DNA of 45,355 bases from the IMG/VR virus record IMGVR_UViG_3300010362_000033, positions 1 to 45,355 of that record; one strand, written 5' to 3'. Shown here piece by piece: positions 3,224-44,947 of the stretch. Source of the stretch: a virus. Lineage: Duplodnaviria > Caudoviricetes. A program made the translations under genes and the position numbers. The notes under the pieces were generated by a model that was given only the letters and a program-made list of their open reading frames with translations, had not been told where the DNA came from and did not search any database. The first letter of the stretch is position 1. Each line of letters begins with the position of its first letter.

Positions 3224-3607
3224 TCACACCCCTACGTGATGCGCGACGTTCTCGCGCTGCAGCATCTCGACCGATTCACTCGGCCACCATGACTGGTTTT
3301 CTCGTTTCTGTCGTGCGAGCAGCAGCCGCTCAATCTCGTCGGCGTCGACCGGAAACTGCACCGCGTGATACTGCGCGCCGCACTCGATGCAGCACGCGAG
3401 CGCCCAGCCACGACGCACGAAGAGACCGGCGCCGCACTCGCAATCGACAATCCAGCGCCCATGATCGACACGCGCGACGCGCACGCTGTCGGAGATGTGG
3501 ACCTGCGCGACCTGCTTCGCTGCGAGCGCGCGCACTTGCCAGTCGCACAGCTCGACCGGCGAGCGCACACCGAGCGCCGTCGCATCAAGCAGTCGTGTGA
3601 ACATCAC
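3224..3607 (-). CDS. Cys-rich tail-region protein (putative Zn-binding)
   Basis: VDHGRWIVDCECG...CCIECG...ENQSWWPSE; coupled to both neighbours. Confidence 0.6.
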   Translation of the reverse strand: MMFTRLLDATALGVRSPVELCDWQVRALAAKQVAQVHISDSVRVARVDHGRWIVDCECGAGLFVRRGWALACCIECGAQYHAVQFPVDADEIERLLLARQKRENQSWWPSESVEMLQRENVAHHVGV

Positions 3608-4781
3608 TGCCCCGTCGAAGTTCGATGGACTGCGGCTCGTCGTAGGAATACACGAGCACTTGCCGCGCTGATGCCATGACGCGCGCTTCGAGTGTCGGCA
3701 CTTCGTCGAAGCGTCGCTGCGACACGAGAATGGTGTCGACGAGATCGCCGCCCCAGTCAGACAGCTCGCGCACGACGACCGGCGCCGCGCGATGCTTCGA
3801 GCCGTCGCGCTCGATGCCGGACACCGGCACGTGATACCGCGACGCCACGCGCGCCAGTAACAGCCCGTTGCCGCAGCCTAAGTCGAGCACCGCGCCTTGT
3901 GGCGGCGACGCGTCGAGCGCGCGCAGGATCTGCGCGTGCGCGCTGTGCATGGCGTCACGTGTGCTGAAACCGTTCTCAATCCACTGCCAGTCGCGCGCCG
4001 GCGCCGCTGCATCGACACTCGCGCGAAATGGCGCGAGACTCGTCAGCGGCACGAAGTTCGGTTTCAGGAAGGGAAACGTCAGACCGCTCGGGGCGTCGAC
4101 GGGGTATTGCGTGCCCATCAGCCGCACGTCACGTCGCTTCGCGGTGTAGTCGGTATTCGTGACGACCTTGACGACTGGCCAGATGACTTCCGCGATGCCG
4201 TGGAGCGCGCTGTATTGCACTGGCCACGACAGCAGCTCGCGGGTCCACTCGGCGCAGCTGTCCGGTAAGAGCGTTGCGTACTGCTGCGCGGCATACTCCG
4301 ATGCGACGCAGCCAAACGCGCACGGCAGATGCGGCACGAGCCGCACGCCGAGCCAGCGCCCGAGAATATTCGAGCCGAGCGGCGTCGCGCTGCGATGCAC
4401 CATTGCGAGCGTCGTGTCGCGCAGGCGTCGTTCATTCCAGACGCGGTCGAAAAACTGAATGCAGCATTCAGGAAAGCCGAGCAGCCGCCCGATGTGCGCA
4501 TCGTCGCGCGCGTGAAAGGCGTTCGCGAGATCAAGCCCGACCGCCGGTGTGCGCGTGATAGCGACGCGCGTCTTCGTGACGACGGTCATGCACAGCTGCA
4601 GCGTCTCGACCCGTTCGGCGAGCTGGGGTCTGTCGAAGACGAGCGCCGCGAGCCGCAGGTCAGCGGCGACGCTCGTCAGCTCGACGTCGAGCCATGCGGC
4701 TTGAATCGCATCGACGCGCGGCGCCCAGATCGCTTCGGCACGATCTGACGCCCATGCAATGCGTGTGAACTCAGCCGGCAT
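3585..4781 (-). CDS. DUF483-like Cys domain fused to class I SAM methyltransferase
   Basis: IGRLLGFPECCIQFF and LVPHLPCAFGC motifs; C-terminal VLDLGCGNG SAM-binding motif I. Confidence 0.75.
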   Translation of the reverse strand: MPAEFTRIAWASDRAEAIWAPRVDAIQAAWLDVELTSVAADLRLAALVFDRPQLAERVETLQLCMTVVTKTRVAITRTPAVGLDLANAFHARDDAHIGRLLGFPECCIQFFDRVWNERRLRDTTLAMVHRSATPLGSNILGRWLGVRLVPHLPCAFGCVASEYAAQQYATLLPDSCAEWTRELLSWPVQYSALHGIAEVIWPVVKVVTNTDYTAKRRDVRLMGTQYPVDAPSGLTFPFLKPNFVPLTSLAPFRASVDAAAPARDWQWIENGFSTRDAMHSAHAQILRALDASPPQGAVLDLGCGNGLLLARVASRYHVPVSGIERDGSKHRAAPVVVRELSDWGGDLVDTILVSQRRFDEVPTLEARVMASARQVLVYSYDEPQSIELRRGSDVHTTA

Positions 4782-6006
4782 CGTTGTGATCTCCGTGCAT
4801 GTGCGTCATCCCCTGATCCCCGTGCACGATGTACGCGCCGTCGCTGTGCTGAAAGCCGTCCGGTGCGTCCCAGTGATCCCCGTGCGGCTGCTCGTGCGGC
4901 GCGCTGTCGCGTAAGACGCGCTGTTCGAGTGCGTGCCGGCGCGCCGCGACGAGCGTCAGCGGCGTCTGCCCCAGCTTCACGAGTTCGTCTTCAAGCGTCT
5001 CGAAGAGTCGGTACCAGACGCGGCACTGCTCGCTGCGATTGCGCCAGTCGCCGTCGATGGCGGTACCGGGACACTGCCCCTTGCAGGCATAGAAGAAGCG
5101 ACAGCCCTGACAGCCCCCATCAGCCCACGGGGTTTCGTAGAGCGCGCGATAGCGCTCGACGCCGTGACTGCCGGCTTTGACCCAGTCGACGCCGTCTTTA
5201 TTCGTGCGACCGCAGTTCGCGCGGTTCCCGAGCCCGTTGACGCTGCGCACGGCTGGCGTCGTCAACGGGTCGCAGGCATTCCAGACACACGACCCCGGTG
5301 CGCCCGTCAGCAGCAGCTGCGCGAGATCGGTGAAGACATCGAAGCGCAGTACCTTGAGCTGCTGCTGCAGCTGATAGCACGCGAGAAAGGCGTTGACCTG
5401 CTCGTCGTCGCTGAGCGCCAGCTGCTGCCGTACCTCGTCGTGATCGACTTCGAGCGCATGCAGCCGCACGTGTGCGATACGATTCGCATCGAGTTCGCGC
5501 AGCCACACGAGCAAGCGCGGCAAGCGCTCGGCTGATGCGTTGCCCCGATGGAGCGTCACGATCAGCGACGGCACGTTCTGCGCATCGAGCAGCAGCGCGA
5601 TAGCGCGCATCGTCGCTGCCGTGGCTTCGCGCGTCTTGTCGAGTGTGCCAGCCCAGCGTGCATCGTTGAGTTCATCGGGTCCGTCGACCGAGATACCGAC
5701 GCTCGTGCGACAGCGCGCGAATAGCTCGACATGCGCCGGCGTGATGAGCGCGCCATTCGTTTGCACGCTGGTCGAGCCGTAGCGCGCGAAGCCCCACTGC
5801 AGAATGTCGACGAGATCGTCGAACTTCATCAGCAACGGTTCGCCGCCAAAGAGCGTGAAGGCGCCGCCTTCGCGCATCAGTCCCCGTTTCATCGCGTCAA
5901 GGTCATAGCCAGCGGAGTAATTGCCGGCATCGCGCAAGGGATGCTCGTAGCAGTACGGACACGCCAGCTGACACGCCACGCCGACCGGTGAGAGTTCAAT
6001 CGTCAA
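4771..6006 (-). CDS. Radical SAM/SPASM-domain enzyme
   Basis: CQLACPYC (CxxxCxxC), FGGEPLL, QTNG and ISVDGP; SPASM cysteines CQGCRFFYACKGQCPG...C. The TTG start overlaps the upstream TGA (TTGA). Confidence 0.93.
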   Translation of the reverse strand: MTIELSPVGVACQLACPYCYEHPLRDAGNYSAGYDLDAMKRGLMREGGAFTLFGGEPLLMKFDDLVDILQWGFARYGSTSVQTNGALITPAHVELFARCRTSVGISVDGPDELNDARWAGTLDKTREATAATMRAIALLLDAQNVPSLIVTLHRGNASAERLPRLLVWLRELDANRIAHVRLHALEVDHDEVRQQLALSDDEQVNAFLACYQLQQQLKVLRFDVFTDLAQLLLTGAPGSCVWNACDPLTTPAVRSVNGLGNRANCGRTNKDGVDWVKAGSHGVERYRALYETPWADGGCQGCRFFYACKGQCPGTAIDGDWRNRSEQCRVWYRLFETLEDELVKLGQTPLTLVAARRHALEQRVLRDSAPHEQPHGDHWDAPDGFQHSDGAYIVHGDQGMTHMHGDHNDAG

Positions 6007-14211: not shown

Positions 14212-15300
14212 TTAAGCGGCCTGTACTTTCACGAGCTGTTGCAGATCGCCCAGCACGGTTTTCGCGCGTGCGACCCACGTAGCCTCGGCTATGCAAGCCG
14301 GTAATGCGGCAGCGACACGTGCACGACCGGCTTTGTCAGCCAGCCAGAGACGGATCAGCGCTGCCGCCTCGGTCGGTGTCGTGAAGGTCGGCACCAGATC
14401 GCCGAAGACTTCGCCGACTTCCGCACGGTACTCGCTCAGATGAAATGCCCCGCACGCCGCGAGTTCATACGCACGGGGACTGAGTGATTCGGCGTAGAGT
14501 GGCGCCTGCGCTTTGTAGCCCCAGTTCTTGCGCGAGCGGTACAGATTCAGCCCGATGCGCGCACGCCGATAGAGCGCGCCGGCGGTTTCGTTGTTGATCT
14601 GCTCGTCGCGAACCAGACTGCGCACCTGCTTGTTGAGACCCAGCCCTTTCCATGTGCCATAGAGACCGAGATCGATGCCGCTCCAATCAATCGAGTTAAA
14701 CCATTCGACGCGCTCGGAGAACCCGGAGCCGACGAAGACGACGTCGTGTGTCGGCACCTGTCCATCGATCAAGTGCGCCGAGACGTAGTGACGTTCCGGG
14801 TGATAAGCGTGCGGCAGATACCCCGCGCGCGGATTCACGGCTTTGAACGCGGCGACGCAGCTGCGCTCGTTCGTCCAGCAGCCGTCGACGCGCGCCGCCA
14901 TCGCGAGTTCTTGCTCGCTGTCGTACGGGGATTCTGTGAAGAGCACCGTCACCGTCAGGCCAGCACGCTTCATCATGATCACGACATCGGGATGCATCAG
15001 CATCGCGCTCACAATCAGCACGACGTCGACCTGATGCCGCAGCGCCATTTCAAGCGCGCCGATTCCAGCTTGATACATGATGTCAGCGGTATTCGGCTTC
15101 GCGAGATCGGGCTGCGCTTTCTTCTTCTTTCTCCACATCACGTGCAGCGTCTTGCCGGCGAACTCGATGCGCTGGTCGAGACGAAACGGCACGATCTCGA
15201 CCCCGAGCACGTGCAAGCCGTAGCGCAGACCGGCTTCGACGTCAGCCGTCGACCATGTCGCGCCGGGATGCACGAGCAGCACGCGCAGCGGTCGTGTCAC
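14212..15300 (-). CDS. Glycosyltransferase, CgeB/GT-B-like
   Basis: YLPHAYHPERH, DVVFVGS, LYRRARIGLNLYR and SPRAYELAACGAFHLS motifs. Confidence 0.85.
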   Translation of the reverse strand: MTRPLRVLLVHPGATWSTADVEAGLRYGLHVLGVEIVPFRLDQRIEFAGKTLHVMWRKKKKAQPDLAKPNTADIMYQAGIGALEMALRHQVDVVLIVSAMLMHPDVVIMMKRAGLTVTVLFTESPYDSEQELAMAARVDGCWTNERSCVAAFKAVNPRAGYLPHAYHPERHYVSAHLIDGQVPTHDVVFVGSGFSERVEWFNSIDWSGIDLGLYGTWKGLGLNKQVRSLVRDEQINNETAGALYRRARIGLNLYRSRKNWGYKAQAPLYAESLSPRAYELAACGAFHLSEYRAEVGEVFGDLVPTFTTPTEAAALIRLWLADKAGRARVAAALPACIAEATWVARAKTVLGDLQQLVKVQAA

Positions 15301-16508
15301 CGCGACAGCTCCGGTGTCGGGTCAGGATCGGGGTCCGGTTCGGGATCAGGGTCTGGCGTCGGGGTTTCACGCAACATGGATGCCTCTGCTTTCTTGATGC
15401 CGAAAACCAGCTTCATTCCCGGCGGATCGGTGTTCGGGGTCTCGACGCGCGCGAAGCACTGCCCGTGCCGCTGTTCAAATTCATCCCATGCGCGCTTGAC
15501 GCCGGGATACATCACGTTGTCGTAGTCGTCGCCGGCGACGATGCCGCCGACGCGTACGTGTGGCCACCATGCGTCGAGATCGGCGGCTGTCGACTCGTAG
15601 GAGTGGTCTGCGTCGACGTACAAAAAGTCGATGGGTCCGTCCGTCCATGCGGCAGCGGCTGCGGTCGTGAGCGCTGGCACCAGTCGCACCGACGGCGCGA
15701 CGTGCGCGGCGACGAGATTCGTCGCGCACTCGAAGAGCATCTGCGGCGCCCCGGTGACGGTGCCGCCGTACGCGACGGCGCCCATCCACGTATCGACGCA
15801 GGTCAGCACGCCGCCCCACTGCCGCAGCTCGTGCGCGAAGGCAATCGCCGACGCACCGCGCCACGTGCCCAGCTCGACGCAGCGATGCGGTCGATGCGCA
15901 TGCAGCAGGTCGAGCAGCTGCGGACCGTGATGCAGCCAGCCTTGCGGCAGATGCTGCAGAACTGGCGGCGCCGCCGGCCTGAGATGCGCAATGACATCGG
16001 CGCACCAGACGATCTCGGATGGCGCCCAGCGCATCGACGCGAGAAAGTCGAAGTCGCCTTCGTACCGTGTGCCCCAGCGCCCGAGCTTCGTCTTGTCGTT
16101 CGGGATCAGCATCATTTGCGAGCTGACGTTGCCGACGCGCAGTGCTGGTTCCGACCACAAGACGCGGTCATTCCAGACCATGCGAAACAAGATCGGCTTG
16201 TCGCGGACTGTCGCGCGTGCGTCTTCCATCAGCTGCCGCGCTCCCGGCAGATAGATGTCGTCGTCGTCCATGAACGCGAGATGCTGCCCACGCGCGCGCG
16301 CGATGCCGGCGGTCCGCTCGGCGGCGCCCCAGTTATGACCCCGCGCGCACTCGACGAACGTGCAGCCAGCGACAGCGGCGACCGCTGCCGCCGACGGAGA
16401 CTCACCGACGACCAGCACTTCGTCGTCATCGCCGCGCTGCTGTGTGATCGACTGCAGCGCGCGATACAGCGTCGGTCGACCAATCGTCGGGACGATGAAG
16501 CTAATCAT
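15297..16508 (-). CDS. GT2 glycosyltransferase fused to class I SAM methyltransferase
   Basis: ISFIVPTIGR...FMDDDD (GT-A DxD); then VELGTWRGAS, CVDTW, IDFLYVDADHSY, GGIVAGDDY; C-terminal (PD/PE) repeat. Confidence 0.88.
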   Translation of the reverse strand: MISFIVPTIGRPTLYRALQSITQQRGDDDEVLVVGESPSAAAVAAVAGCTFVECARGHNWGAAERTAGIARARGQHLAFMDDDDIYLPGARQLMEDARATVRDKPILFRMVWNDRVLWSEPALRVGNVSSQMMLIPNDKTKLGRWGTRYEGDFDFLASMRWAPSEIVWCADVIAHLRPAAPPVLQHLPQGWLHHGPQLLDLLHAHRPHRCVELGTWRGASAIAFAHELRQWGGVLTCVDTWMGAVAYGGTVTGAPQMLFECATNLVAAHVAPSVRLVPALTTAAAAAWTDGPIDFLYVDADHSYESTAADLDAWWPHVRVGGIVAGDDYDNVMYPGVKRAWDEFEQRHGQCFARVETPNTDPPGMKLVFGIKKAEASMLRETPTPDPDPEPDPDPDPTPELSR

Positions 16509-29611: not shown

Positions 29612-30073
29612 TTACACCACGGTCTGATACACGCCGCTATAGCTCGCGCTGTTATTCGATGCCGCGAGCGCCGCCCCGCTCTGGTTCTCGATGACGAGAC
29701 CCCACTTGCGCGGCATCACGCCGCCGAAGCACTGCGCCACACTGAAGAGCGCTTCATAGACTTTCGAATTCGATGGCGTCGGGATCACGCGTGCGAGCTT
29801 CATGACCGGCGGGTCTTCGAGCGTCAGCGCCGCGTCGCTGCCGGTCGCAGGGTCTTCGTAGGTCGTGCCGTCTTCGGAGCCGTAGACGTACACGCGCACT
29901 TCTTTCGGCGCCGCGACCGTGCCGACACTGGCGCTCACGCGCACGAGCGCATCGAGAAAAAGATTGCTGGTGTTATCGACCGCAGTCGATTCGCGAGCTG
30001 AGCCGCTGCCCAGTGAATTGAACGTGCACGTTATGGCTGTGCTGCCGCCGAAGGCTTGCTTGATGTCGGACAT
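29612..30073 (-). CDS. Putative virion structural protein
   Basis: MSDIKQAFGG...VYVYGSEDGTTY...KWGLVIENQSG, beta-rich. Confidence 0.6.
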   Translation of the reverse strand: MSDIKQAFGGSTAITCTFNSLGSGSARESTAVDNTSNLFLDALVRVSASVGTVAAPKEVRVYVYGSEDGTTYEDPATGSDAALTLEDPPVMKLARVIPTPSNSKVYEALFSVAQCFGGVMPRKWGLVIENQSGAALAASNNSASYSGVYQTVV

Positions 30074-30137
30074 TGCGCGCGCGTGTGCTGGGTAGCATGC
30101 GCGCGAACGCCGAAACGCCATGCGCTAGGAGTAACGC

Positions 30138-30437
30138 TTAGCCCGTTCCCCTTAAAATTTTGCCGGCACTGTTGCGCACTTCGCGCGTGCTCCATCGTGT
30201 GCCGCAGACCACACATTCACGCCGGCGGTAGACGCCTTCTTCGATGATGAGACTACGCGAGCGGATCACGCGGCTGATCTGACTGCCGCAGTCGGGGTTT
30301 GGACACGTGAACTTTGACGGCGTGTCGCGATAGCGCACGAGCGCGCCGCCACAGTGCGCGCAGTGTCCGCGCTGCTGCGCTTCGCTGCGGGTCGTCAAGA
30401 CCCGACAGCGCACACAGATCCGAAACTGATCGAGCAT
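30138..30437 (-). CDS. Zn-ribbon protein resembling the NrdR N-terminal domain
   Basis: CPNPDCG...SRVIRSR...YRRRECVVCGTRWSTRE, plus an extra CxxC...CxxC; no ATP cone. Confidence 0.7.
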   Translation of the reverse strand: MLDQFRICVRCRVLTTRSEAQQRGHCAHCGGALVRYRDTPSKFTCPNPDCGSQISRVIRSRSLIIEEGVYRRRECVVCGTRWSTREVRNSAGKILRGTG

Positions 30438-30571
30438 CAGCGCGGTAAGACCGCCAGCATCGACAGCAGCACGAGCAGCATGACCGCGACCCACAACGGC
30501 GCACGGCCAATCGCCGCGCCAATCGTGACCGCGAACGCCGCGAGCACCAGCAAGATCGTTAGTGACAGCAT
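30437..30571 (-). CDS. 44-aa two-TM membrane protein (holin-like), not in ORF track
   Basis: MLSLTILLVLAAFAVTIGAAIGRAPLWVAVMLLVLLSMLAVLPR*; SD GAAAGGGG upstream; TGATG coupling to the next gene. Confidence 0.65.
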   Translation of the reverse strand: MLSLTILLVLAAFAVTIGAAIGRAPLWVAVMLLVLLSMLAVLPR

Positions 30572-30595
30572 GAGCGGTTCCCCTTTCGTTCACGA

Positions 30596-31401
30596 CTCGA
30601 CGTCAGCACACCACACAACACAACTCGACGACACGACAAAACGCTTCACGCAACGACACAACAGTGCTCGACGCCCAGCACACCACACTGCACAGCGCTA
30701 CTCGACGACAGCACACTGCAGCACACGCCAGATCGCTACATCCCTCGACGACACGACAACTCAGAACATCCCGCAACACAACACAACTCGACGTCACTTC
30801 AATTCAGATCACGCCGGCTCGCTGGCATCACAACACAGTGCTCGACGGCACGCCACGCCACCATCACTACGCGCCACCGCACAACAATCCACACCTCGAC
30901 GGCAGCTCACGTCACCGCACCACGCATCGCGGCACTACTCGACGACACGACACAACAAACCGGTTCGGGTCACGCCACGCAACTACACTGCGGCTCACCA
31001 CTCGACGCCAGTTCACATCAGACCAGAACAGTGCACCTCTCGACGTCACTGCAAGACACCCGACCACACGACACGAGATGCCACTGCACAGCTCGACGAC
31101 AATCCAGCACACAACAAACGACCGCACACCAAAACTCGGACGACCCACGACAGCGCAGCACAGTTCTCGACGTCAGATCACGTCATCACGGTCGACGACA
31201 GTGCAGCCCACTGCAGCACTCGACGTCATCGCATCACAGCACAGCTCACTACGACTCGGCCCAGACCACGCCACTGCACCTCTCGACGACACCGCATATC
31301 ACGACAACGCACCGGCACGACACGTCAGCGCACTGCACGCCTCGACGTCACAGCACTTCACCACGACACCACGTCGCAACACGGCACGACACAGCTCGAC
31401 G
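30596..31401 (-). repeat. Non-coding array: 17 CTCGACG boundaries separating units of 5-nt [CA-NNN] modules
   Basis: CTCGACG at 30596, 30624, 30667, 30701, 30744, 30787, 30841, 30895, 30938, 31001, 31039, 31092, 31166, 31219, 31282, 31341 and 31395. All 16 periods are 5n+3 or 5n+4. Strand inferred from the operon direction. Confidence 0.92.
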
Positions 31402-31404
31402 ACG

Positions 31405-31788
31405 TCACTTCTCGCCAATGAGCGCGCGCAGCGTCGCACCGTCAGACGGCGCGACTTTGTCGGGATTCAGCCCCGGTATCATCGAGCGCAACAGCGGCGA
31501 GCGCGGTACCGGCACCGTGCGACCGTAATCTTTCAGCATGCGGTGATACGCGATCTCGATCTTCACAAGATTCTGCGGCGTCTTGATGCACTGCCCCATC
31601 TGTTCGCCCATCTTCGGCGTCAAGGTGCCGCGCTCTAGTCCGTCGAGAATCTGCTCGTTCTTTTCGAGAATCGCTTCAACGGTGCGCAGCTGCGGGGCGT
31701 TTTTTCGCAGCAGCGAGTGTGTCGTCGATCCGTTCGAATTCGTAGCTGTATCGGCCTTCTCCGTCGCTGCGTTCTCCCGCGTAGCCAT
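31405..31788 (-). CDS. Hypothetical protein between the RAMP-like gene and the array
   Basis: Helical ORF whose stop abuts the array; overlaps the upstream gene if this ATG is used. Confidence 0.6.
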   Translation of the reverse strand: MATRENAATEKADTATNSNGSTTHSLLRKNAPQLRTVEAILEKNEQILDGLERGTLTPKMGEQMGQCIKTPQNLVKIEIAYHRMLKDYGRTVPVPRSPLLRSMIPGLNPDKVAPSDGATLRALIGEK

Positions 31789-32407
31789 GCACACCCCCAT
31801 ACGTGAACACGTGATGCAGATCGGTTTCCGAGACTGATCGCCCCAGCACTTTGATCGTGAAGTCGAGCACCGATGGCGGCTCGATGTACTCGAAGCGTTT
31901 GATTGCGTTCATCATGCCGCGCGGCCCCTTGACGTGAATCGCTTTGTCGAACGCGCCGTCAGCGTGCGCGATGCGATCTCCGTTCGGTCGCATGATCGGA
32001 AGCCAGTACACGTGCTCGTCGAGATAGACGCCGTTGATGACGCGCGTACTGAAAGCGCGCTCGCCCTGAATGCGACCGACGAATTGATTCGACAGCACAC
32101 GTGCACAATCTTTGATGTGCGCTTTGACGGTCGACGCACGCTGCACGAGCGCGCCATCGTGACGTTGAAAGACCAGCATCGAATACGACTGATCGGCGTC
32201 GCCTTCGCCGCGCTCAATGCTCGCGAGCACTTCTTCGTTGATCTCGTCAATCGACAGCGCGCCGGCTGGCGCGACGCGCGGCGCTCGCGATTCGAGCCAT
32301 TTTTTGACCAGCTCGGGATCGGCGGGGACTGACGCACACAGCCGCGTCAGCAAGGTCCAGCGCACGCGATAGAGCGTCCAGAGTTGCGGCAGTTCAGGTT
32401 TTGTCAT
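31676..32407 (-). CDS. Cas7/Csm3-like RAMP-fold protein (stand-alone)
   Basis: N-terminal beta strand YRVRWTLLTRLCASVP, central ASTVKAHIKD helix, FEYIEPPSVLDFTIKV strands and C-terminal Gly loop YGGVHGYAGERSDGEGRY; SD GGGAG before the ATG. Confidence 0.65.
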   Translation of the reverse strand: MTKPELPQLWTLYRVRWTLLTRLCASVPADPELVKKWLESRAPRVAPAGALSIDEINEEVLASIERGEGDADQSYSMLVFQRHDGALVQRASTVKAHIKDCARVLSNQFVGRIQGERAFSTRVINGVYLDEHVYWLPIMRPNGDRIAHADGAFDKAIHVKGPRGMMNAIKRFEYIEPPSVLDFTIKVLGRSVSETDLHHVFTYGGVHGYAGERSDGEGRYSYEFERIDDTLAAAKKRPAAAHR

Positions 32408-32433
32408 AACGTGTACTCCCTTCTGGTTGTTGT

Positions 32434-32646
32434 TCACTGCAGGTCGAAGAGCGGCAGATCGCCTTCATCGCGAGCTGCCGCTCGCATGCGCCCGATCAGC
32501 CCGTCATAATCTTTCGTGAGTTCTTTTAGGTGTTCTTTGCACGACGCGATCTGCTCGCCTTTCACGACGAGCTGTCGCTCAAGGGATGCCATCTGATGAA
32601 ACCGCCGTGCGGCGCGCTCGTCAGTGATGTTCTCTAGATCAGCCAT
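32434..32646 (-). CDS. Small coiled-coil protein
   Basis: MADLENITDERAARR...GDLPLFDLQ. Confidence 0.6.
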   Translation of the reverse strand: MADLENITDERAARRFHQMASLERQLVVKGEQIASCKEHLKELTKDYDGLIGRMRAAARDEGDLPLFDLQ

Positions 32647-32878
32647 GCATCGTCTCTCGTTTCTGACGCTCAGCGGCGTCACGCATCCACTCACGCCCCG
32701 GCAACTCCACACAGCACGACGCGCACAGCTTCGGGTCGTACGTCACTTCGACCGGCGGCTTGTCGGGGTCGTTGCTCGGCACTTTGCGCACGAACCCGTA
32801 TCGACGTAACGTGTCGGTCGGGATCAAGCGCGTCACGACGCTGCTATGTGTGCACTGACACTTGTCGCAGACGTTCAT
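32639..32878 (-). CDS. Small Cys-rich protein
   Basis: CDKC...CASC; coupled ORF. Confidence 0.5.
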   Translation of the reverse strand: MNVCDKCQCTHSSVVTRLIPTDTLRRYGFVRKVPSNDPDKPPVEVTYDPKLCASCCVELPGREWMRDAAERQKRETMHG

Positions 32879-33206
32879 GGGATTCCCCTTTGAGCGCGCG
32901 CTCGACGAGCCGCAGCGCGAGACCGTTGCGCACGTGATCCGTGGTCACGCGCAGCCCACGCCAGCCGAGAATGCACGCTTCGCAATACTTCAAACAGTCC
33001 AGCTCGAAGCCCTTGCCGCGCGTATGGCGACCGGCCCCGCGCTTGAAGATGCCGCCTTCGACTTCGAGATACAGCAGACGATCTGGCCACGCAAAATCGA
33101 ACGCCCAGCGCCGCGTCGGATGGAACCGGTACTGCGTCACCGGCGCCGGCAATTTCATCGCTTGCATCTGAAACTGCAGATTCCGCTCGAAGCCGCTCTG
33201 CATCAC
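32844..33206 (-). CDS. PD-(D/E)xK-type endonuclease
   Basis: QYRFHPTRRWAFDFAWPDRLLYLEVEGG...RHTRGKGFELDCLKY...GWRGLRVT. Confidence 0.8.
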   Translation of the reverse strand: MMQSGFERNLQFQMQAMKLPAPVTQYRFHPTRRWAFDFAWPDRLLYLEVEGGIFKRGAGRHTRGKGFELDCLKYCEACILGWRGLRVTTDHVRNGLALRLVERALKGESHERLRQVSVHT

Positions 33207-33646
33207 AGCGTCTCGCCGGTCGTCGCAATCTCCGTGAATCGGTCACGTGGAATCTCGATGCAGGGATGCACATCGAATCGGTCACCGCGATCTGTGCGGC
33301 CCCGCACTGCCGTCGGCAGTCCGCACAGTCGCGCGACGTCGACGTAATACAGCCCGTCGGTGAACTGCACGACAAAGACGGCTTTGACGTTGAACGCGAG
33401 CGCGGCATACATCAGGTGCATGGTCTTCAGGACGTCGAGCAAGACCGTTCGGTATTCCGCGATGCGATTGCGATGCGTTTTGATTTCGATCAGTCCGACG
33501 AGTTTGTTCTCGCGCTTCATGTACCAGTCAATCGGCGACAGTGCCGGGAACTCGACGGCTTCGCAGTGCCATGCATCGGCCACGCGCTGCGCGATCTCGC
33601 GTTCGCGCGCTTTGTCTTCAGCTTGCTGGTAGACCTTGCGCGTCAC
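33203..33646 (-). CDS. PD-(D/E)xK nuclease-like protein
   Basis: IDWYMKRENKLVGLIEIKT (D...ExK) and FVVQFTDG. Confidence 0.65.
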   Translation of the reverse strand: MTRKVYQQAEDKAREREIAQRVADAWHCEAVEFPALSPIDWYMKRENKLVGLIEIKTHRNRIAEYRTVLLDVLKTMHLMYAALAFNVKAVFVVQFTDGLYYVDVARLCGLPTAVRGRTDRGDRFDVHPCIEIPRDRFTEIATTGETL

Positions 33647-36139: not shown

Positions 36140-36541
36140 TTACTTGACGCCCACGAAGATCGATGGCGGCGTCGGAATCGCGCGCGCGACCGGTCGCCAC
36201 AAGTGCAAGGTGTATGGATGCTGATTGATGTATTCCGACTCGCGCGGGTGCAGCTGCATGACGACGTCGTCACCGTCCCAAAAGAGACGCTTGACGAAGT
36301 TCATCTCTTTCCACGTCGGCGTACGCTGCCGGTTGTCGGCGTGCTCGCGATAGGCGTGCACGCTCACGTGCTCCCACGGCTCGAACTCACCGTCGGCGTC
36401 GGCGCCGTCGGAAGCGAGAATCGCCAGCCGCCATCCCGGTTCCGGGGAATCGAGATCGAAGGCGCCGTTGTTGCCGTCGTCGGTCGTCGACCCTAGCAAC
36501 GGATGATCGACAATGCGTGATCGTTCAGGGACGTGAAACAT
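36140..36541 (-). CDS. Conserved phage protein (WEHVSV...PTW.EM...LHP...HLW family)
   Basis: WEHVSVH...RTPTWKEMNFVKRLFW...MQLHPRESEYINQHPYTLHLWRP. Confidence 0.75.
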   Translation of the reverse strand: MFHVPERSRIVDHPLLGSTTDDGNNGAFDLDSPEPGWRLAILASDGADADGEFEPWEHVSVHAYREHADNRQRTPTWKEMNFVKRLFWDGDDVVMQLHPRESEYINQHPYTLHLWRPVARAIPTPPSIFVGVK

Positions 36542-36552
36542 ACAGCGCACTC

Positions 36553-36768
36553 CTACAGGTGTCGCGCGACCGTCGACGCGCGGCGCCCCCACTGACCGGC
36601 GAGATACTGATCGACGAGATCGGCGCGATAGCGCCGGTTGTGACCGAGACGCGGCAGAAGCTCGACCAAAAACGGCAGGTCATGCTGTCGCAGCAGTCGT
36701 TCAAAGGTCGTCTTTGGCATCTGCAACAGCACGAGCAGCTGCGCGACGGTGTAGCAGCGCGACGCCAT
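36553..36768 (-). CDS. Excisionase-like winged HTH protein
   Basis: YTVAQLLVLLQMPKTTFERLLR...RRYRADLVDQYL. Confidence 0.65.
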   Translation of the reverse strand: MASRCYTVAQLLVLLQMPKTTFERLLRQHDLPFLVELLPRLGHNRRYRADLVDQYLAGQWGRRASTVARHL

Positions 36769-41164: not shown

Positions 41165-41203
41165 ACAAGAACAATGATAAGCCGACGCTTATCGCTTGTC
41201 AAG
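41165..41203 (-). promoter_or_regulatory. Sigma70 promoter/operator repeat type B, copy 1
   Basis: TTGACA-17nt-TATCAT with palindrome GATAAGC-N4-GCTTATC; identical 39-mer at 41508-41546. Confidence 0.85.
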
Positions 41204-41507: not shown

Positions 41508-41546
41508 ACAAGAACAATGATAAGCCGACGCTTATCGCTTGTCAAG
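41508..41546 (-). promoter_or_regulatory. Sigma70 promoter/operator repeat type B, copy 2
   Basis: Identical to 41165-41203. Confidence 0.85.
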
Positions 41547-41590
41547 GGTCTGCGGCGCCTTCGGCAAAAATAATTCCTGTGGTCAGACTG

Positions 41591-41619
41591 TTGACAAACC
41601 CCAGCGCTGCGTATACCAT
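41591..41619 (+). promoter_or_regulatory. Sigma70 promoter/operator repeat type A, copy 1
   Basis: TTGACA-AACCCCAGCGCTGCGTA-TACCAT. Confidence 0.85.
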
Positions 41620-41666
41620 TCATTCATCGGGCAATGACGCCCACACAAAAGACCGGAGCGGACACA

Positions 41667-41975
41667 ATGGCTTACGAAACAAAAACGGCAATCGTCAACG
41701 GCATCACGATCAACTATCCAGCGTCCCCACTCCCGACCCCCGAGCGCGTCGCCGAACTCGACGCAGCCTTCAAGCGTGTACAGAACCGGGAACACTGGAA
41801 AGGCGCCATCGACTGCGTCGTCGAGATTCTGACGAATGGCGACCTTGCCACGATTCTTGAAGCCATCGAGTTCTACACGGCCACGACTGGCACGGTGACG
41901 CCAATCGGCGAGATCGGCAAGACCACGACGTTTCGCGTGACGGCGCCGGGGTACTGGGCTGGTCCCGCGAACTAA
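41667..41975 (+). CDS. Hypothetical protein
   Basis: MAYETKTAIV...WKGAID...AIEFYT...VTAPGYWAGP; SD GGAG. Confidence 0.7.
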   Translation: MAYETKTAIVNGITINYPASPLPTPERVAELDAAFKRVQNREHWKGAIDCVVEILTNGDLATILEAIEFYTATTGTVTPIGEIGKTTTFRVTAPGYWAGPAN

Positions 41976-42001
41976 ACAGATCACGGACCCAGCGCTAGGA
42001 G

Positions 42002-42030
42002 TTGACAAACCCCAGCGCTGGGTATACAGT
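42002..42030 (+). promoter_or_regulatory. Promoter/operator repeat type A, copy 2
   Basis: TTGACA-AACCCCAGCGCTGGGTA-TACAGT, with an extra operator-like CCCAGCGCTAGG just upstream. Confidence 0.85.
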
Positions 42031-42037
42031 AGTGCTC

Positions 42038-42271
42038 ATGAACAACACAGCCTATCTCGTGACCCCAAAATCTCTTCTCTCTTCATTCATCCTAGAGGCT
42101 GATCGCCTCTACTTCTCTACTCCCGTCGTCGTGGAACTTCTCTACTCGGAGACTTCCACAAAACTTCTCTTCGTGCGCGACCCCCACCGGGGTCACATCT
42201 ACCCCACTAACCCCAAATTCATCAGGGAGACCCCCACAAAAAAATTTCCCCGTCCCAGCGCTGGGGGTTGA
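42038..42271 (+). CDS. Hypothetical protein (probably leaderless)
   Basis: ATG 8 nt after the -10 box. Confidence 0.5.
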   Translation: MNNTAYLVTPKSLLSSFILEADRLYFSTPVVVELLYSETSTKLLFVRDPHRGHIYPTNPKFIRETPTKKFPRPSAGG

Positions 42272-42296
42272 CAAACCCCAGCGCTGGACTTACACT
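42268..42296 (+). promoter_or_regulatory. Promoter/operator repeat type A, copy 3
   Basis: TTGACA-AACCCCAGCGCTGGACT-TACACT, with an extra CCCAGCGCTGGG upstream. Confidence 0.85.
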
Positions 42297-42303
42297 GTCT
42301 TAC

Positions 42304-42468
42304 ATGACACAGCGAATTGACGACGGCACCTTCACCCCCGGCGACGCGGTGACCTACAACGGCAAGCCGGCGGTGTTCGTCTCGCGCACGGTCAAGCACC
42401 GAGAGATTGAAGTCGACGGCAAGAGACTGTTCGTCACGGCATGGCGGGTCAAACCCGCCAGCCGGTAA
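42304..42468 (+). CDS. Small SH3-like hypothetical protein (probably leaderless)
   Basis: MTQRIDDGTFTPGDAVTYNGK...; ATG 8 nt after the -10 box. Confidence 0.55.
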   Translation: MTQRIDDGTFTPGDAVTYNGKPAVFVSRTVKHREIEVDGKRLFVTAWRVKPASR

Positions 42469-42491
42469 CCCCAAAGGGAGAGAGACCAAAA

Positions 42492-42845
42492 ATGACACCG
42501 ACCTTCGAAGTTATCAACGTTGAATTCAGCAAGGGGCTGTACGACTCACAGCAGATCGCGCTCGCCGATGCGTGGCAATTCTTCGAAGACGAGAACTATA
42601 GGTATCACCCCCAGCGCGCATTCTGCCGGAACCTGACGGACGGCTCGACGTTCTGGACGTTCGCCAAAGCGTGGATGGTCTGGGATGCCACGATGCAGCG
42701 GTACCGCCTGACCCGGATCGGTCTCGGCGCCTACAGTGACGGTGGCCCCGAGAATCCTGCGCTCGTCGGCTGGCGCTCGCAGCTGCGCGCACGGCTCGTC
42801 GACGGCGCCGGCTGGGTCAGTGGCATCAATTGGCCCACCGAGTAA
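42492..42845 (+). CDS. Hypothetical protein
   Basis: SD GGGAG; followed by hairpin GGGCTGTCA-TCTTCGGG-TGACAGCCC. Confidence 0.65.
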   Translation: MTPTFEVINVEFSKGLYDSQQIALADAWQFFEDENYRYHPQRAFCRNLTDGSTFWTFAKAWMVWDATMQRYRLTRIGLGAYSDGGPENPALVGWRSQLRARLVDGAGWVSGINWPTE

Positions 42846-42919
42846 GCGCCGGCGAAAGGGCTGTCATCTTCGGGTGACAGCCCCCCACCAAAAATATTTA
42901 GCCACCCCTTGCCAGACTG

Positions 42920-42948
42920 TTGACAAACCCCAGCGCTGGGCCTATACT
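42920..42948 (+). promoter_or_regulatory. Promoter/operator repeat type A, copy 4
   Basis: TTGACA-AACCCCAGCGCTGGGCC-TATACT. Confidence 0.88.
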
Positions 42949-42954
42949 GTTCTC

Positions 42955-43584
42955 ATGATGACAAAGACACAACGCCGCGCGACTTGCCCCGCATGCTTCG
43001 CCGCACAAGCCGTCACCGCTGGTGGCGCACTCGTCGCGCATGGATACACCAGACCGCAGCACTGGCACCAGAACGTCGGCAATTGCGCCGGCGTCGGCAA
43101 GCCGCACTTCGGCACCGAAGCCGGTCGAGACTACACCGCGTCGATTGCGGCGAACCTGCGCACGCAAGCCGACAACGCCGAAAAGACCGCCGACAGCGTC
43201 GAAGCCGGCACGTCGCCGGTCAGGAAGCAAGAGCGCATCAAGAACACGCGCGTGTATCAGTGGGTCGTCGACGAGAACGCCGGCGACTACGAGCGCAGCC
43301 GGTACGCGGCAAACCTGCGCGCGCACGCGACGCAGATGCGCGCGTCAGCCGCCGAGTACGACCGGCTCGTCGCGAGCTGGACGCCGGCAGAACCGGTGAC
43401 CGTCAACGTCGCCGTCAAGGTCTCGCTCGTGCACTGGCGCGACCAGCGCCCCCGGAACTATGGCGGCAAGGCGTGCGCCGGCTCGCGCATGGCTGCGGTC
43501 AAAGGGGTCATGACGACCGACATCGCGCACGTGACCTGCGAGAAGTGCCGCGAACGTCACGCGCAGTGGATGGCCACGAAATAA
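42955..43584 (+). CDS. Hypothetical Zn-binding protein (probably leaderless)
   Basis: CPAC...HGY...C and H...C...VTCEKC motifs; ATG 7 nt after the -10 box. Confidence 0.7.
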   Translation: MMTKTQRRATCPACFAAQAVTAGGALVAHGYTRPQHWHQNVGNCAGVGKPHFGTEAGRDYTASIAANLRTQADNAEKTADSVEAGTSPVRKQERIKNTRVYQWVVDENAGDYERSRYAANLRAHATQMRASAAEYDRLVASWTPAEPVTVNVAVKVSLVHWRDQRPRNYGGKACAGSRMAAVKGVMTTDIAHVTCEKCRERHAQWMATK

Positions 43585-43609
43585 ATCTGCAGACCCCCAG
43601 CGCTGGCGG

Positions 43610-43638
43610 TTGATAAACCCCAGCGCTGGGTATACACT
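43610..43638 (+). promoter_or_regulatory. Promoter/operator repeat type A, copy 5
   Basis: TTGATA-AACCCCAGCGCTGGGTA-TACACT, with an extra CCCAGCGCTGG upstream. Confidence 0.8.
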
Positions 43639-43662
43639 GCTTTGTATATGGAGAGAACAGAC

Positions 43663-44178: not shown

Positions 44179-44438
44179 TGGCGAAACGTATTCGACTCGT
44201 GCACGAAGCCGCCAGCGCGACGCTGGCGGCAGACGTCCACAAGAACGCCTCACGCTACAAGCTGCGGCACACCGATGTGCTCGTCGAAGCTGCGCGCAAG
44301 CTCGAACGGCTGCTGACGAAGCGTCGCAAGGCGCGCCGCGAGCTGCGCACGCTCGACGCGCAGATCAAAGTCGCACGGCGTGAACTCAACGCCGTCACCG
44401 ATGAACTCACGACCAGAAACGGAGCAGATGACCTGTGA
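44178..44438 (+). CDS. Coiled-coil hypothetical protein
   Basis: TAATG coupling. Confidence 0.6.
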   Translation: MAKRIRLVHEAASATLAADVHKNASRYKLRHTDVLVEAARKLERLLTKRRKARRELRTLDAQIKVARRELNAVTDELTTRNGADDL

Positions 44439-44947
44439 AGCGCAAGCGACCGAGCATCCACGTGAAACCGTGGACGCCCTTTGTCCAGATCGCGCAGCCG
44501 CAATCAGACTATTTGCCGGCTGGCCACGAACCCGAGATGACGGTCACGAACAGTCGGTACCACGTCGCGATGTGGCGCGGTGATGATCCGCAGCTCGGCG
44601 AGTACGTGCACCTGTCGATCAAAGACCACGACCGCAGCGCGCGGCACGACTGGCGCGACCTGCAGCGCATCAAGAACGAACTCGTCGGACCCGAGTACGA
44701 AGCCGTCGAGATCTACCCTGCTGAGTCCCGACTCGTCGACACGTGCAATCAATATCACTTGTATGTCTTCGCGACGTGGAAGCCGGCGTTTGGCTTCGCG
44801 TCGCGTCTCGTCGCCGACGGCAAGTCGGCAGTCATGCCGAACGTTGCGCAGCGACCCTTCGAGCAGCGCCCGACCGACTGTCTCGACGGCGCCGCGTTCG
44901 ATCAGGTTTTGCGCGACACCCTACAGAAGAATGGAGAACACGAATGA
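44435..44947 (+). CDS. Conserved phage protein (HLSI...W..LQ.IKNE...YP...N.YHL family)
   Basis: VHLSIKDHD...HDWRDLQRIKNELVGPEYEAVEIYPAESRLVDTCNQYHLYV. Confidence 0.75.
   Translation: MKRKRPSIHVKPWTPFVQIAQPQSDYLPAGHEPEMTVTNSRYHVAMWRGDDPQLGEYVHLSIKDHDRSARHDWRDLQRIKNELVGPEYEAVEIYPAESRLVDTCNQYHLYVFATWKPAFGFASRLVADGKSAVMPNVAQRPFEQRPTDCLDGAAFDQVLRDTLQKNGEHE

Follow-up and report, generated by a model that had tools for sequence, protein, structure and literature searches.

The soil phage analysed here very probably carries a VIPR system of a divergent clade, in which a Cas7-fold Vipr protein is likely to polymerise on guides from an adjoining array, while the first two bases of each guide pentamer (N1N2) are likely to pair with double-stranded DNA and to silence genes of other phages. 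The window, by which we mean the whole stretch of 45,355 nucleotides that was analysed, is a virus record (IMGVR_UViG_3300010362_000033), 100% complete by CheckV, with terminase, portal, protease and capsid genes, and within it the gene for the Cas7-fold protein adjoins 16 short repeat units. VIPR guide-RNA systems were published in 2026 (10.64898/2026.04.26.720920), and an earlier note on this DNA, which had referred to reports of such Cas7-like phage systems, was right that they exist; its RNA-guided reading of the locus is furthermore supported by our analysis. New here are the observations that the third base of the pentamers (N3) keeps the amino acid of the target, is invariant in a guide shared between phages, and under-matches the copies present in the phage's own genome.

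The vipr gene (31676..32407, minus strand), assigned from its open reading frame, a structural model and profile homology, encodes a protein of 243 residues with a single-RRM RAMP/Cas7 fold and a C-terminal glycine loop. RAMP hallmarks had been noted in this protein before, and the fold is in agreement with them: the AlphaFold model (mean pLDDT 82.6) displays an RRM core, a thumb and the glycine loop, the last conserved in our alignment A1, and matches Csm3 with a Z of 12.5 (rmsd 3.3, 158 aligned) and type VII Cas7 with a Z of 12.0, and each of the best 26 structure matches is a RAMP complex of CRISPR systems or a subunit of one. Searching Pfam, PHROGs, PADLOC and the PDB sequences with the protein gave nothing informative, and its sole match to a cas model was a sub-threshold one to Csm4 (E 0.04). 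The RAMP fold is shared with the Csm3/Cas7 backbones of CRISPR types III, VII and IV (Z 10-12.5), but the identity to Csm3/Cas7 is about 11%, there is neither a cas operon nor CRISPR repeats here, and the contiguous six-base segments of Csm3/Cas7 contrast with the five-base guide steps of the present array. The relation to the Vipr protein of Escherichia phage SUSP1, named as such in the available text of 10.64898/2026.10.15.759431, is weak when single sequences are compared by hhalign (Prob 1% and 13%), but the profile of the clade (A2) aligns with that of the SUSP1 Vipr family (A4) with a Prob of 93% and an E of 3.3e-7 over 124 columns. Homologues of vipr number at least 463, and a profile search returned 1441 clusters; in one of the homologues (L006/L125, G007:C1:25853-26617) some 20 residues are inserted in frame ahead of the last helix.

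The guide array (30596..31402, minus strand) is 806 nt long, and 17 copies of CGTCGAG, located from 30596 to 31401, delimit its 16 units, each of which is different. A non-coding array of about 810 nt on the strand of the gene, with YG at every fifth base, had been described in the earlier note, and indeed YG occurs 136 times at five-base spacing against 68.8 +/- 7.0 in 1000 dinucleotide shuffles (maximum 95), the array being the sole peak of five-base periodicity in the whole window. Of the proposal that 16 units are bounded by CGUCGAG, the number of units stands, but the boundary is really 8 nt long (NNN-N-CGAG); CGTCGAG is the version of the window phage, and across the clade only CGAG recurs, which was also part of the unit definition used. 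Between boundaries the units consist of 4-13 pentamers of the form N1N2N3-YG and carry no tail, 10 of them being exactly in phase and 6 having one extra base. The fourth position of the 127 pentamers in the window array is T in 111 and C in 16, and the fifth is G in 121. Over 447 in-phase units of the clade the five positions hold 0.01, 0.00, 0.22, 1.13 and 1.87 bits, since N1 and N2 are uniform and N3 is G in 49%, C in 22%, T in 17% and A in 12%, followed by U in 82% and G in 98.5%. A fixed G-U-G scaffold, which was the first idea, was dropped because N3 holds those 0.22 bits and tracks the targets. An Rfam search of the array gave zero matches, its folding was not better than that of shuffles (z +1.67), no CRISPR-like repeat was present among the 20 largest of the 32 direct-repeat families in the window, and no sigma-70 promoter-like site was found in 30000-33500.

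The array and the gene belong together, a point that the earlier note had raised in asking whether homologues always neighbour 5-periodic arrays. From 109 distinct fetched loci the 79 with at least 600 nt downstream were considered, and 75 of these have the same pentamer runs with CGAG boundaries, down to a protein identity of 27%, whereas 21 of 518 control windows passed the pentamer-run test. The array might otherwise be a degenerate microsatellite or a low-complexity coding region with no relation to the RAMP gene, and long His/Thr-rich open reading frames do span it on the plus strand, but its period is five rather than three, most unit lengths are not multiples of three, the coupling of gene and array recurs in the 75 loci, and the targets described below are specific to one decoding rule; refuted already by the target excess, the array coupling and the rule test, this explanation retains next to no probability. 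Where identity falls below about 50%, the array in many loci comes immediately after vipr, and in L054, L066, L068, L074, L075, L077 and L080 several separate arrays flank vipr and neighbour genes. In Microcystis phage Mae-JY09 (L092, PP395641.1) a C-rich repetitive tract follows after position 3232 on the gene strand, past the 25%-identical homologue WWT39994.1, and it is perhaps another VIPR grammar.

The small open reading frame that had been seen between the RAMP gene and the array is a conserved gene of about 90 codons, represented in a 34-sequence alignment (A3). This accessory, vap-like gene (31405..31785, minus strand, with the conserved part at about 31408-31692) lies in the +1 frame and overlaps the 3' end of vipr, its start being uncertain; an alternative start or a frameshift fusion in the 31405-31800 region is possible. 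In 27 of the 33 related loci that were aligned, 2 nt separate its stop codon from the first boundary of the array, and in many distant loci the gene is absent from the spot just before the array. The accessory open reading frame of the closest clade has no conserved start, and in several distant relatives an ATG is found at or just after the vipr stop. The protein belongs to no Pfam family, and its ESM Atlas leads were all below 0.9. That there is no other cas gene, as likewise claimed before, holds for the scans of the window with PHROGs (45 open reading frames), Pfam (26) and PADLOC (7), which found none, so that the locus is a minimal viral one of vipr and the accessory gene; the cas operon and repeat-spacer array of class 1 CRISPR-Cas are absent in the window scans.

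The function of the variable bases was addressed by searching guides against 2.03 Mb of fetched phage DNA with arrays masked, later-fetched loci being de-duplicated without masking of the array. With 220 in-phase guides, reading N1N2 and then skipping one nucleotide gave 8 stringent matches against 1.0 for shuffled guides, and seven other registers or skip lengths gave 0-4 against 0.7-6.0, in agreement with the earlier suggestion that the variable bases read a target discontinuously. With units of one extra base included, the concatenated variable bases at fixed gaps matched for 13 of 267 guides at p<=0.05, against 7 of 1068 shuffles (1.75 expected). A first pass over 0.55 Mb had shown no overall excess over shuffles and two perfect long matches (20/20 and 16/16), and a contiguous three-base search yielded few additional matches and no perfect contiguous target. 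The sites of all 13 matched guides lie within phage genes, 12 antisense and 1 sense, and in each the skipped base is the wobble base; the matches are not fully independent, since some guides cover one capsid site; several of the targets recur in 2-6 phages, where the differences are mainly at the skipped bases. Targets confirmed by Pfam are the terminase small subunit, a DNA methylase and a capsid protein, to which vipr itself is to be added. Others we take, from their motifs, to be an HK97-type capsid protein, a tyrosine integrase, a prohead protease and ParB-like, exonuclease-like and RecT-like proteins. At the level of amino acids 15 matches were obtained against 2.5 expected; being circular for the purpose, these were left out of the unbiased N3 counts given below, and some of them entered the curated self/non-self set.

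A guide carried by another phage (L080/L123) matches the glycine-loop codons of the window vipr (31760..31789, minus strand) with 20/20 at N1N2, and guides directed against vipr or accessory genes within the clade, the window vipr included, occur at L058:1713, L077:1419 and L080:10684. The role is likely to be competition of phage against phage, since the targets are essential conserved motifs of related phages. Silencing of rival phages or of host defence had been suggested; the targets do lie in rival phages, but none in host defence was seen in a set that is almost all phage DNA. A complex that binds messenger RNA rather than DNA, as Csm3/Cas7 of types III and VII do, might seem an attractive reading given that 12 of the 13 top matches are antisense, that 224 guides look antisense against 127 sense, that the nearest solved folds are RNA-targeting Cas7s and that the SUSP1 VIPR, according to the available text on it, can pair with single-stranded RNA in vitro. 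However, 6 of the 23 curated guides are sense, among them the 20/20 and a 14/14 match to vipr, and these are unable to pair with the messenger, which makes RNA targeting quite improbable compared with the targeting of double-stranded DNA that we favour.

Among the window's 16 units only unit 11 (30795..30848, minus strand) has a DNA target above chance. It matches, in antisense, the terminase small subunit gene (PF05119) of phage G003 (locus L188, 271-297) at 17 of 18 N1N2 bases; the skip falls on the wobble position, and the match requires that one extra base be omitted. N3 is identical in 6 of 9 modules, and 0/30 and 0/40 module shuffles were as good. Read as triplets, 22 of its first 24 bases match the site. 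No site for unit 11 is present at >=65% in the phage's own genome, the window's own terminase gene being without one. Unit 10 (30849..30902, minus strand) decodes in antisense to a Y-x-R-x-S motif like that of what we take to be the catalytic strand of serine recombinases, and 6 of its 8 residues are shared with the N-terminal end of a PF00239 member in L196; it has no DNA-level target above chance, and a serine recombinase is found in only 1 of 38 related virus records. Unit 15 (30632..30674, minus strand) is common to five other phages, and its target was not found in the 2.03 Mb set; an apparent match of the shared guide on L117 lies outside any open reading frame and was taken as chance, as was an 18/22 match of unit 3 (p 0.08-0.1). 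Besides units 10 and 11, the other 14 have no target in the set. Peptide-motif look-ups for units 1, 2, 9, 13 and 15 gave no convincing target, their decodes presumably resembling HNH or glycosyltransferase motifs.

The third base deserves separate consideration, since it follows the target's wobble base above chance and defaults to G. In 12 of the 13 matches, which passed an ORF filter and had been picked on N1N2 alone, N3 preserves the amino acid of the target at 32 of the 39 sites that are not fourfold (19.1 expected) and is the same as the target base at 41 of 81, against 7 of 12 (6.8 expected) and 10 of 31, respectively, in shuffled controls. An earlier, partly overlapping set gave 52 synonymous of 67 (34.6 expected), and in 140 strongly antisense-like guides the implied TAA/TAG stops amount to 1 in 30 TA-initial codons. 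In the window array alone the tracking is non-significant (z 1.5, p 0.058; antisense stops 2 against 2.4 expected). At fourfold sites N3 is G in 50-59%, in both orientations.

This tracking may reflect true pairing of N3 or something left over from the acquisition of the guides, and both can coexist. If N3 is paired, the target would be contiguous with three bases read per subunit and U-G looped out, and synonymous wobble differences would spare the phage's own copy of a gene while alleles of its rivals are silenced. Such pairing is a serious possibility, although we hold it at somewhat below even chances. In its favour, 9 of the 23 curated guides have sites in their own genome that match at >=80% of N1N2, where the available text of the discovery paper reports none for the P. 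fulva, type III or type V systems (10.64898/2026.04.26.720920). N3 furthermore matches at 15 of 55 own-genome positions, where gene codon usage predicts 23.2 (P 0.010), and at 73 of 132 positions of the best non-self sites against 60.7 (P 0.009), in a test that was post hoc, used hand-picked guides and dropped 2 of 25 that were anchored on wrong sites. In unit 15, the guide common to six phages, departures from the column majority number 0 for N1, 2 for N2, 0 for N3, 7 for the scaffold U and 2 for the G, of 42 each, so that N3 is invariant while the scaffold U varies. Identity between guide and target extends over contiguous runs of 17-18 bases, with the 22/24 of unit 11 to be added, and the aspartate that reads the first scaffold base in SUSP1 is missing. 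However, the excess shrinks to 66.8 against 60.1 of 126 when all non-self homologues are averaged, the codon-phase lock and the default to G suggest that N3 is at least tolerant, the SUSP1 thumb flips the skipped base into a pocket according to the available text on that complex, and neither a perfect contiguous target nor a clear favouring of wobble-compatible mismatches (7 against 4) was found.

It is likewise conceivable, though we consider it somewhat doubtful, that N3 is an unread relic, target DNA having been copied triplet-wise with U-G inserted and N3 having then drifted to a mildly preferred G. Subsequent drift of the wobble bases in the target would produce an N3 that is synonymous yet frequently not identical, G is in excess at fourfold sites, and the related guides of L077/L080 and of L074/L075 differ at N3 in 3-4 modules. 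A relic does not, however, predict that N3 matches self sites less than expected, nor that in the shared guide it varies less than the scaffold U, and we judge weak pairing at N3 to be slightly likelier than a pure relic of acquisition. We propose, tentatively and with less than even confidence, that the clade gave up the skip, such that all three variable bases would pair contiguously, wobble bases would separate own from rival alleles, and guides would be copied triplet-wise with U-G inserted. Giving up the skip would be linked to the loss of the aspartate that holds the first scaffold base.

That aspartate is known from the SUSP1 cryo-EM paper, where, in the text available, D177 and W178 read G1 and G2 of GGY while E71 and M72 bar purines at Y3. 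In the profile alignment D177/W178 correspond to G211/E212 of the window Vipr, R179 is kept, and E71/M72 correspond to S92/T93, which means that the D-W-R of the type II glycine loop is G-E-R in the present clade. The G-E pair is found in 165 of 200 motif-bearing clade proteins and D followed by W, Y or F in 93 of 101 SUSP1-family proteins; judged from the aligned sequences, the G-E and S-T changes may account for the altered scaffold. They also bear on which strand is the guide. Were the guide RNA the opposite, AC-rich strand (CA-N/NN), target sites would be unchanged and the published order kept, namely two fixed bases, a flipped base opposite the skip, and then NN, a register that mirrors GG-Y-NN, and CAC/NN is among the published non-canonical motifs. 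All 1113 units found nevertheless share one orientation relative to vipr, the vap stop is fused to the first boundary in the 27 of 33 loci mentioned above, the G-rich guides of SUSP1 are co-oriented with its vipr, and the glycine-loop changes fit the register of the GU strand, and for these reasons an AC-rich guide is unlikely.

With the GU-rich strand as the guide strand, the array would be transcribed and processed into guide RNAs, the CGAG boundary, which breaks the five-base phase, likely separating one guide from the next. By homology with SUSP1, Vipr would coat each unit as a filament with one subunit per pentamer and present N1N2 to double-stranded DNA, three target bases being spanned per subunit. 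The bound gene would be repressed. The N1N2 of successive pentamers correspond to codon positions 1-2 of conserved genes in other phages, N3, right after the NN pair, is aligned with the wobble base of the target, and the fixed scaffold consists of U-G alone.

Every VIPR feature that was examined computationally is present, including NN dinucleotides that are read with a single base skipped at the wobble position, and two features of type II, the GGY consensus and the structured tail, are absent. The published types I-VII are told apart by the phylogeny of Vipr and the kind of vap. Type II VIPR is represented, in the available text of the reports (10.64898/2026.04.26.720920; 10.64898/2026.04.26.720927; 10.64898/2026.10.15.759431), by Escherichia phage SUSP1 and a Pseudomonas fulva prophage, and the window locus resembles these in its lone phage RAMP, small accessory gene and downstream pentamer array, in its homologous protein, in its NN code, which skips 1 nt at the wobble base, and in being directed against other mobile elements, with vipr genes and recombinases among the targets. 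It differs in that the type II scaffold is G-G-Y and that of the clade N3-U-G, in that type II guides end in a pseudoknot tail whereas the units here are tail-less, with 4-13 pentamers and the 8-nt CGAG boundary, in that the third base varies and tracks the target and NN-level self matches occur, and in that the accessory protein, unlike that of type II, is of no recognised family.

The motif had been thought to differ from the GGY/NN of VIPR, and N3-U-G does differ, but equal or near motifs are already in print, and the surface grammar has probably been catalogued. The available text of the discovery paper mentions non-canonical arrays (NNNGG, YNNNG, NNNNG and staggered ones) in its Methods and figs S17-S18 (10.64898/2026.04.26.720920), and the head-to-tail units of the window resemble its staggered arrays. 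Section 4.22 of a later preprint, as far as its text is available, gives CAC/NN and TGH/NN (10.64898/2026.10.21.760802), of which the former equals the commonest pentamer of the window grammar on the other strand and the latter is close to that grammar in another register. For none of these non-canonical motifs do the available portions of the sources decode targets, test the register, describe a boundary motif or analyse the third base. The clade may itself be in the published set, since a 66%-identical homologue (HAM40694.1) is present in NCBI nr. Neither tracking of the third base nor decoding of the N3-U-G grammar was found in the literature, where VIPR supplements and figures could hold it.

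VIPR has been proposed as a viral forerunner of class 1 CRISPR, and its published code skips the wobble base; the available text of the VIPR papers contains no statement on how the guides are made. As the clade is widespread and its guides carry the third base of the target, guide copying from target DNA and the shift of a gapped code to CRISPR-like contiguous pairing both become directly testable. Such a shift would, if true, also provide PAM-free discrimination of self from non-self, and short tail-less units with a two-base scaffold would make a compact programmable repressor.

Elsewhere in the window no PF00589 or PF00239 recombinase was found over the CheckV-complete 1-45355; an HTH_17 gene is present at 36556-36768 of this recombinase-free genome, one guide of which decodes to a serine-recombinase-like motif. 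Five copies of an element of about 26 nt, in which TTGACA or TTGATA precedes a conserved GC-rich box, with a TATACT-like hexamer downstream in several copies, lie within 41584-43640 and are probably repeated early promoters or operators. A perfect 39-nt direct repeat with internal dyad symmetry is found at 41165-41203 and 41508-41546, 343 nt apart. Radical SAM, glycosyltransferase and methyltransferase genes are located inside the virion gene block (4774-6006 and 14215-16508), and two DUF7694 paralogues occur at 36143-36592 and 44435-44944.
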